Below, piece after piece: positions 25,054-25,243 of a stretch of DNA of 64,000 nucleotides. The notes under the pieces are model-generated. The model was not told where the DNA came from. It was given only the letters and a program-made list of their open reading frames with translations, and did no database searches. Source of the stretch: Trypethelium eluteriae (taxonomy: Eukaryota); contig JAVECL010000025.1 in NCBI GenBank assembly GCA_051942245.1, positions 1-64,000 of the forward strand. Direction: 5' to 3'. A program made the translations under genes and the position numbers. How positions within the stretch are numbered: the first letter of the stretch is position 1; each line of letters starts with the position of its first letter.

Positions 25054-25243
25054 CACTCTACGTGGGGCTTGAACCCACAACCTTCGGATTCACGTATAGC
25101 TGGAGAAGCATGAATTGGAGAAATCAGAAGGAAAGGATTGGCAAAACTCACAAGTCCGACGCGCTACCTGCCGGCCAATGTGTTAGAAGTTTGACAATTT
25201 AGATCATGGATTTCATCTTGTCTCACCATTGCGCCAGCAGAGC
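25054..25243 (-). tRNA. tRNA-Arg(UCU) split by two spliceosomal-type introns (25226-25168, 25151-25100) and one 7-nt canonical-position intron (25096-25090)
   Basis: Joined exons give GCTCTGCTGGCGCAATGGTAGCGCGTCGGACTTCTAATCCGAAGGTTGTGGGTTCAAGCCCCACGTAGAGTG (72 nt). Acceptor stem GCTCTGC/GTAGAGT, D stem GCGC/GCGC, anticodon stem TCGGA/TCCGA, T stem GTGGG/CCCAC, anticodon TCT, G73. Colinear with yeast tRNA-Arg(UCU) as I recall it. Confidence 0.85.

Follow-up and report, generated by a model that had tools for sequence, protein, structure and literature searches.

A predicted tRNA-Arg(UCU) gene of a lichen fungus carries two introns of the spliceosomal type in addition to an insert at the canonical tRNA-intron site

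A 64,000-nt stretch of Trypethelium eluteriae DNA (NCBI GenBank assembly GCA_051942245.1, contig JAVECL010000025.1, positions 1 to 64,000 of the forward strand; hereafter the window, meaning the whole stretch that was analyzed) contains, on the minus strand at 25243-25054, the complete body of a tRNA-Arg(UCU) in four pieces that are separated by three inserts of 59, 52, and 7 nt. The two longer inserts, called intron A and intron B, resemble the spliceosomal introns of mRNA genes, and the 7-nt insert lies where tRNA introns are usually found. On balance, we consider this locus to be a working nuclear tRNA-Arg(UCU) gene with two spliceosomal introns (A and B) and one intron of the tRNA splicing endonuclease (TSEN), such that this tRNA-Arg probably needs the mRNA-splicing machinery to mature. 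The parts of the gene, read along the minus strand, are as follows.

25243-25227, minus strand: exon 1, 17 nt; 5' strand of the acceptor stem, U8, 5' strand of the D-stem, and start of the D-loop.
25226-25168, minus strand: intron A, 59 nt, in the D-loop; GTGAGA...TTCTAAC...GGCAG.
25167-25152, minus strand: exon 2, 16 nt; remaining D-loop, 3' strand of the D-stem, position 26, 5' strand of the anticodon stem, and C32, U33, and U34.
25151-25100, minus strand: intron B, 52 nt, between anticodon bases 34 and 35; GTGAGT...TTCTGAT...CCAG.
25099-25097, minus strand: CTA; anticodon bases 35 and 36, then A37.
25096-25090, minus strand: 7-nt insert TACGTGA, at the canonical tRNA-intron site 37/38.
25089-25054, minus strand: last exon, 36 nt; A38, 3' strand of the anticodon stem, variable loop, T arm, 3' strand of the acceptor stem, and discriminator G.
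25048-25038, minus strand: run of 11 T (T11), which follows GCTTG downstream of the discriminator G (25054).

When the four pieces were joined by script, they gave a 72-nt product in which all 21 stem pairs are standard (19 Watson-Crick pairs and 2 G-U pairs in the acceptor stem) and in which the anticodon loop reads CTTCTAA. A previous sequence-only reading of this DNA had proposed these exons and introns, and had predicted a 72-nt cloverleaf after cutting at GT/AG and removing the 7 nt; its coordinates and letters match the sequence base for base, and the predicted cloverleaf is the one that was recovered. Intron A can be placed in three equivalent registers because GT is repeated at both of its ends, a single register is possible for intron B, and the 7-nt insert may equally be placed at 37/38 or 36/37, owing to the repeat of the flanking A. 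The locus stands out for the second mRNA-type intron inside the anticodon (34/35), the 16-nt internal exon, and the presence of three introns of two kinds in the gene for one 72-nt RNA. With its anticodon interrupted by intron B, an unspliced form would never be able to decode.

The gene is not seen by standard tRNA finders in its genomic form. ARAGORN found no tRNA anywhere in the 64-kb window, Rfam at its gathering score found none in the same DNA, and Rfam at E values up to 10 gave no tRNA match in the 701 bases around the locus (24800-25500). When both A and B were deleted, ARAGORN reported a tRNA-Arg(tct), and this was the sole combination of deletions that gave Arg(tct); with introns allowed, the 7-nt insert was then called as i(37,7). 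These results bear out the earlier predictions that standard finders would miss the gene, that it is a tRNA-Arg(UCU), and, for the ARAGORN part of the proposed comparison of genomic and spliced DNA, that a call would appear on the spliced form only. The construct lacking intron B only gave no ARAGORN call, and that lacking intron A only was called as a tRNA-Gln(ttg) with a 59-nt intron at 34/35. We rejected the tRNA-Gln(ttg) assignment because its intron site is non-canonical, Arg(tct) is the best match to the body, and the assignment gives no account of the CTA with which CTTCTAA is completed. ARAGORN also makes a call if intron A is ended at an alternative AG 4 nt further on (25164); this acceptor was rejected because its use removes bases of the D-loop and D-stem and because it is not the first AG past the branch motif.

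One other RNA family has a weak match at this locus. The match, to the box C/D snoRNA snoR31/Z110/Z27 (25117-25227, minus strand), was taken as chance (23.6 bits compared with a gathering score of 45, E = 1). The match extends over intron A, exon 2, and intron B, and its D-box-like CTGA is the CTGA in the branch motif of intron B.

The mRNA introns of the window were mapped by threading public proteins of the same or a sister species through its DNA; an intron set obtained by joining open reading frames (ORFs) was dropped in favor of this protein-guided mapping, since its 1,827 candidates were too noisy. Eight mRNA introns had a unique GT-AG solution (four in PSP1, two in VTC, and two in PMT2), and a ninth, in the poorly aligned N terminus of PMT2, was placed by motif. 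The donors of these nine introns (GTACGT and GTAAGT twice each, and GTGAGT, GTAGGT, GTATGA, GTATGT, and GTAAGC) follow the pattern GTNNG[T/A/C], their branch motifs are CT[A/G/C]A[C/T] with 10-20 nt after the branch A, their acceptors are TAG or CAG, and their lengths are 50-76 nt in eight cases and 188 nt in one. The 188-nt intron, in PSP1 (13678-13865, plus strand), is roughly three times as long as the other eight.

Intron A has the donor GTGAGA, the branch motif CTAAC with 15 nt after the branch A, the acceptor CAG, and a length of 59 nt; for intron B, these are GTGAGT, CTGAT with 24 nt after the branch A, CAG, and 52 nt. In both introns, the cloverleaf is restored by cutting at the AG that comes first downstream of the branch motif, and a scanning spliceosome would be expected to choose this AG. 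In donor, CTRAY branch motif, first-AG YAG acceptor, and length, A and B both have the sequence marks of U2-type (GT-AG) introns, and the earlier statement that they resemble the mRNA introns of this window in donor, branch, acceptor, and length holds when they are set beside the nine protein-mapped introns. No copy of intron A or B was found elsewhere in the 64-kb window, and the two are unlike each other (162 of 500 shuffles reach their alignment score). On the evidence of this window, a multi-copy family of the introner-like kind was therefore rejected, and a recent introner-like burst is not supported here.

The frequency with which such a pattern arises by chance was assessed in two ways. 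Deletion candidates were taken from both strands of the window as segments of 35-130 nt that start with GT[AG]NG, end with AG, and have CTRAY near the end; the 549 single intron-like candidates and 185 neighboring pairs gave 734 constructs, and ARAGORN was run on each. Calls were obtained in 4 of the 734 constructs, all 4 at the tRNA-Arg locus, and none of the remaining 730 gave a tRNA elsewhere in the window. In addition, a composite intron signature was defined from the mRNA introns of the window and applied to segments of 45-80 nt. This signature is present in 70 of 4,602,240 (start, length) segments, or 1.5e-5, a rate that overstates chance since the count includes the real introns of the window. 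Both A and B carry the signature at boundaries that are dictated by the cloverleaf. Because the cloverleaf fixes A to three equivalent registers and B to one, multiplication of the rates suggests that both inserts would do so by chance with a probability on the order of 1e-9. Based on these data, a chance origin of the split-tRNA pattern is excluded.

The locus also has sequences resembling the signals of genes that RNA polymerase III (Pol III) transcribes, given here with the A-box and B-box assignments made by their general consensus.

25272-25290, minus strand: AT-rich stretch that resembles a TATA element, 29-47 nt upstream of tRNA position 1.
25236-25226, minus strand: A-box-like TGGCGCAATGG, ending in a G with which intron A begins.
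25075-25065, minus strand: B-box-like GGTTCAAGCCC, the sole match to GGTTCRANNCC in the window.
25048-25038, minus strand: the T11 run, Pol III terminator-like, which starts 6 nt after the discriminator.

The unspliced DNA has a complete A box, since intron A starts with a G that stands in for the first G of exon 2. The single GGTTCRANNCC match in the window is to be read with the fact that at least one match occurs in 54 of 100 shuffles. Within 25243-25054, the longest run of T is 4. Upstream TATA-like elements are known for fission-yeast and plant tRNA genes, and the TATA-like stretch at this locus may be an upstream Pol III element of the same kind. Taken together, the A box, B box, T11 run, and TATA-like stretch fit a predicted Pol III gene. 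A second T run (T9) lies ∼30 nt beyond the putative tRNA terminator and is followed at once by a G-rich stretch (24981-25006, minus strand).

The identity of the joined product was compared with that of tRNAs in at least 119 metagenome loci that had been picked by a shared T-arm pattern, a biased set in which bacterial-type tRNAs dominate. ARAGORN called 105 tRNAs in these loci (among them 46 Lys, 26 His, and 3 Arg(tct)). Among the matches listed for these 105 tRNAs, the best match of the joined product is an uninterrupted Arg(tct) of locus L015 (64 of 72 positions identical) and the next best is a Lys(ctt) (59 of 72). Despite the bias of the set, this ranking agrees with the predicted Arg(UCU) anticodon. 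Yeast tRNA-Arg(UCU) likewise has a G1-U72 pair and a short D-loop of the AAUGG type. No split relative was found among the at least 119 metagenome loci listed, a search of viral contigs for an exact 28-nt stretch gave 0 matches, and a search of genome contigs for a gapped D-loop-intron pattern also gave 0 matches. In many of the metagenome loci (L001, L024, L071, L085, L118, and others), a bacterial-type tRNA-Lys(UUU) is represented by its 3' half alone, beside unrelated DNA; these half genes look like duplicated attachment sites of elements integrated in tRNA-Lys genes.

The two fully mapped coding sequences of the window contain 10 AGA codons. Since AGA codons are in use, a tRNA-Arg(UCU) must be made somewhere in the genome. 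We give slightly less than even odds, and less credence than to the interpretation given at the outset, to a broader proposal: that this tRNA is supplied by the split gene, alone or among others, that the decoding of AGA would depend on the spliceosome and then on TSEN, and that the gene would be a member of a wider, undescribed fungal class that annotation misses.

From the DNA we infer transcription, spliceosomal excision, the order of the steps, and the function of the product, and together they suggest the following pathway. In the host, a lichen fungus of the Trypetheliaceae (Dothideomycetes), Pol III would transcribe the gene from 25243 to the T11 run, giving a precursor of ∼200 nt. The nuclear spliceosome would then remove A and B as ordinary GT-AG branch-point introns, probably in succession, as two complexes would have little space around the 16-nt exon 2. 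The D arm and the anticodon arm could form only once A and B had been excised, at which point TSEN and tRNA ligase would take out the 7-nt intron at 37/38. Trimming of the ends and addition of CCA, as is usual for tRNAs, would come last.

Several observations weigh against this pathway. The branch-to-acceptor distance of 24 nt in intron B is beyond the 10-20 nt of the nine mRNA introns, an A at +6 of the donor (intron A) occurs in one of these nine, and a G at +3 (both tRNA introns) also occurs in one of nine, with the mRNA intron set itself consisting of predicted gene models that are not RNA-verified. The short exon 2 places the acceptor of A very near the donor of B, so that two simultaneous spliceosomes are hardly possible. 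The distance from A box to B box is 161 nt in the genomic form, far above the 43 nt of the spliced form; Pol III tolerance of such box spacing is known from yeast work. The 7-nt insert is very short and shows neither a clean anticodon-intron (A-I) pair nor a 3-nt bulge in a register test or in the minimum-free-energy fold: C32 forms no pair with the intron base that lies 3 nt ahead of the 3' site, and in the fold this 3' site falls within a helix. By its position, the insert is a putative TSEN intron. Finally, intact intron-free Arg(UCU) genes may be present elsewhere in the genome, which would make the split copy dispensable.

This last point leads to the explanation that the locus is a dead or dying copy, in which an Arg(UCU) gene gained two spliceosomal-type introns by transposition or from intron-like mobile DNA, is spliced poorly or not at all while intact genes supply the tRNA, and has not yet decayed. 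The awkward 16-nt internal exon, the 161-nt box spacing, the 24-nt branch distance in B, and the lack of a clean A-I pair for the 7-nt insert count in favor of such a copy. However, its 72 exon positions keep 21 of 21 stem pairs and the exact CTTCTAA loop, both inserts retain full splice signals in which the correct AG is the first to follow the branch motif, and the boxes A and B and the T11 run are undamaged. Two independent insertions into a dispensable gene that left no other damage would be less economical than a maintained gene, and the lack of copies in the window and the dissimilarity of A and B give no sign of a recent burst. We consider a dead or dying copy unlikely. A far smaller probability attaches to the locus not being a Pol III gene, whether because a Pol II transcript (a non-coding RNA or untranslated region) has introns that part old tRNA remnants or because the pattern reflects chance or an assembly artifact. 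The low G+C content of the region (0.448 at 24-26 kb) and nearby ORFs of at least 80 amino acids without a convincing Pfam family would allow for an unannotated transcript, but a T11 run 6 nt past the discriminator, A and B boxes, and a perfect cloverleaf are needs of a Pol III tRNA gene and not of a Pol II exon. Chance is contradicted by the 0 of 730 constructs and the signature rate already given, and an assembly error would not yield two inserts with complete splice signals at boundaries compatible with the cloverleaf.

A further possibility is that A and B are ectopic bulge-helix-bulge (BHB) introns that TSEN and ligase remove, as in archaea, Cyanidioschyzon merolae, and nucleomorphs, and that their GT-AG ends are incidental. 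By the general rule for this motif, each register was scored for a central helix of 4 bp, in which the last bases of the 5' exon pair with the intron's 3' end, and for bulges of 3 nt at the two sites. For intron A, the three registers gave 2 of 4, 1 of 4, and 0 of 4 central-helix pairs; for intron B, the single register gave 3 of 4, with a broken outer helix. Tests of both introns thus failed to give a complete central helix in any register. Multi-intron tRNA genes with introns at non-canonical sites are known in the lineages just named, according to PMC10485636 and PMC3978253, but the four-subunit eukaryotic TSEN, the fungal form included, is described as recognizing the whole tRNA and removing introns solely between nucleotides 37 and 38 (PMC10485636). 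According to the same source, TSEN of the two ascomycete yeasts that were studied is located on the outer membrane of mitochondria (PMC10485636). Removal of A and B by TSEN was rejected because of the failed BHB test together with this restriction to 37/38. A BHB origin would also leave the full donor, branch, and acceptor signature unexplained (1.5e-5 per segment), and we find it scarcely credible. A nuclear tRNA gene whose two larger introns would be removed by the spliceosome remains the reading that we prefer.

The surroundings of the locus are fungal in kind, with window proteins that include VTC/SPX, PMT2, PSP1, NB-ARC-TPR, and threonine synthase. The VTC exon has 99% identity to a protein named as from Viridothelium virens (P0001), the PSP1 exon 100% identity to a protein of a T. 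eluteriae metagenome-assembled genome (P0121), and PMT2 95% identity to a Bathelium mastoideum protein (P0241). On these identities, the window was assigned to a lichen fungus of the Trypetheliaceae. For the genes at 11524-14506 (plus strand) and 60359-62892 (minus strand), the matching public proteins (P0121 of T. eluteriae and P0001 of V. virens, respectively) disagree in genus name. Two long ORFs are adjacent at 33240-36207 (minus strand), one of which (33240-35273) has NB-ARC and TPR domains, and the fungus may have an NLR-like STAND NTPase gene in this region. Among 12 ORFs of at least 80 amino acids at 21.4-28.1 kb, Pfam gave no family for 10; there is a weak FA_hydroxylase match below the Pfam cut-off at 27748-28122, and a DUF4096 match at 26200-26853 that is far weaker.

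If our interpretation is true, two unrelated splicing machines would act in a fixed order on one 72-nt RNA. The textbook and review division assigns spliceosomal introns to Pol II transcripts and the removal of tRNA introns, at 37/38, to a protein endonuclease (PMC10485636; bioRxiv 10.1101/2025.06.17.660180), and the introduction of the latter preprint describes the intron classes as unrelated, with spliceosomal introns in Pol II transcripts. A spliceosome-dependent tRNA would blur this division, and a tRNA would join the short list of non-coding RNAs with mRNA-type introns. Fungal tRNA gene counts would be underestimates, because ARAGORN and Rfam both miss the split tRNA-Arg gene.

The 7-nt insert is far shorter than the introns of yeast tRNAs (14-60 nt) and, unlike canonical tRNA introns, would not be presentable to TSEN until A and B were gone. 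It is like the canonical 37/38 intron reported for human tRNA-Arg-UCU genes in that it occupies the same site in the same isoacceptor (PMC10485636). Ectopic or multiple BHB introns are described in tRNA genes of archaea, C. merolae, and nucleomorphs (Soma et al. 2013, cited in PMC10485636), and such genes, missed by standard finders, were found because tRNAs seemed to be missing (PMC10485636). The present locus resembles them, as they are described there, in that its interruptions are non-canonical, lie in the D-loop and the anticodon loop, and hide it from finders. BHB introns are defined by a fold and cut by a protein endonuclease, whereas A and B fail the BHB test and carry spliceosomal signals.

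Full-text literature searches, whose coverage stops short of subscription journals and supplements, returned no paper on spliceosomal introns in tRNA genes, in line with the earlier statement that there is no established case. Spliceosomal introns have been reported in fungal genes for U3 snoRNA and for U1, U2, and U5 snRNAs (PMC5832005; references in PMC5855946), and the U3 introns have a median branch-to-acceptor distance of 15 nt (PMC5832005). Like A and B, the introns of those genes, as reported, are ordinary spliceosomal introns in non-coding RNA genes that are known by their splice-site and branch motifs. The hosts there are snRNAs and snoRNAs, unlike the tRNA considered here, and the available portions of PMC5832005 and PMC5855946 do not mention a tRNA case.

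The closest precedent is that of U6. Introns of the mRNA type are present in U6 genes of fungi, Schizosaccharomyces pombe among them (Tani and Ohshima 1989, 1991; Canzler et al. 2016, cited in PMC5855946 and PMC5832005), and S. pombe U6 is reported to be a Pol III transcript that is spliced by the spliceosome (PMC5855946). Like those genes, as they are described, the tRNA-Arg locus has a short GT-AG branch-point intron within a small, structured, non-coding RNA gene of the predicted Pol III type; in fungal U6, the spliceosome removes the intron from a transcript that is not an mRNA, and the same removal is proposed here. The introns of U6 have been explained by reverse splicing into a neighbor, as U6 sits in the catalytic center of the spliceosome (PMC5855946). 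A tRNA, unlike U6, lacks proximity to that center, so reverse splicing by proximity does not obviously apply as an origin of the tRNA introns; if our interpretation is true, the locus would bear on intron origin for this reason. Also unlike U6, the tRNA-Arg gene has two such introns and a TSEN-type intron in the gene for a 72-nt RNA, one of them splitting the anticodon.

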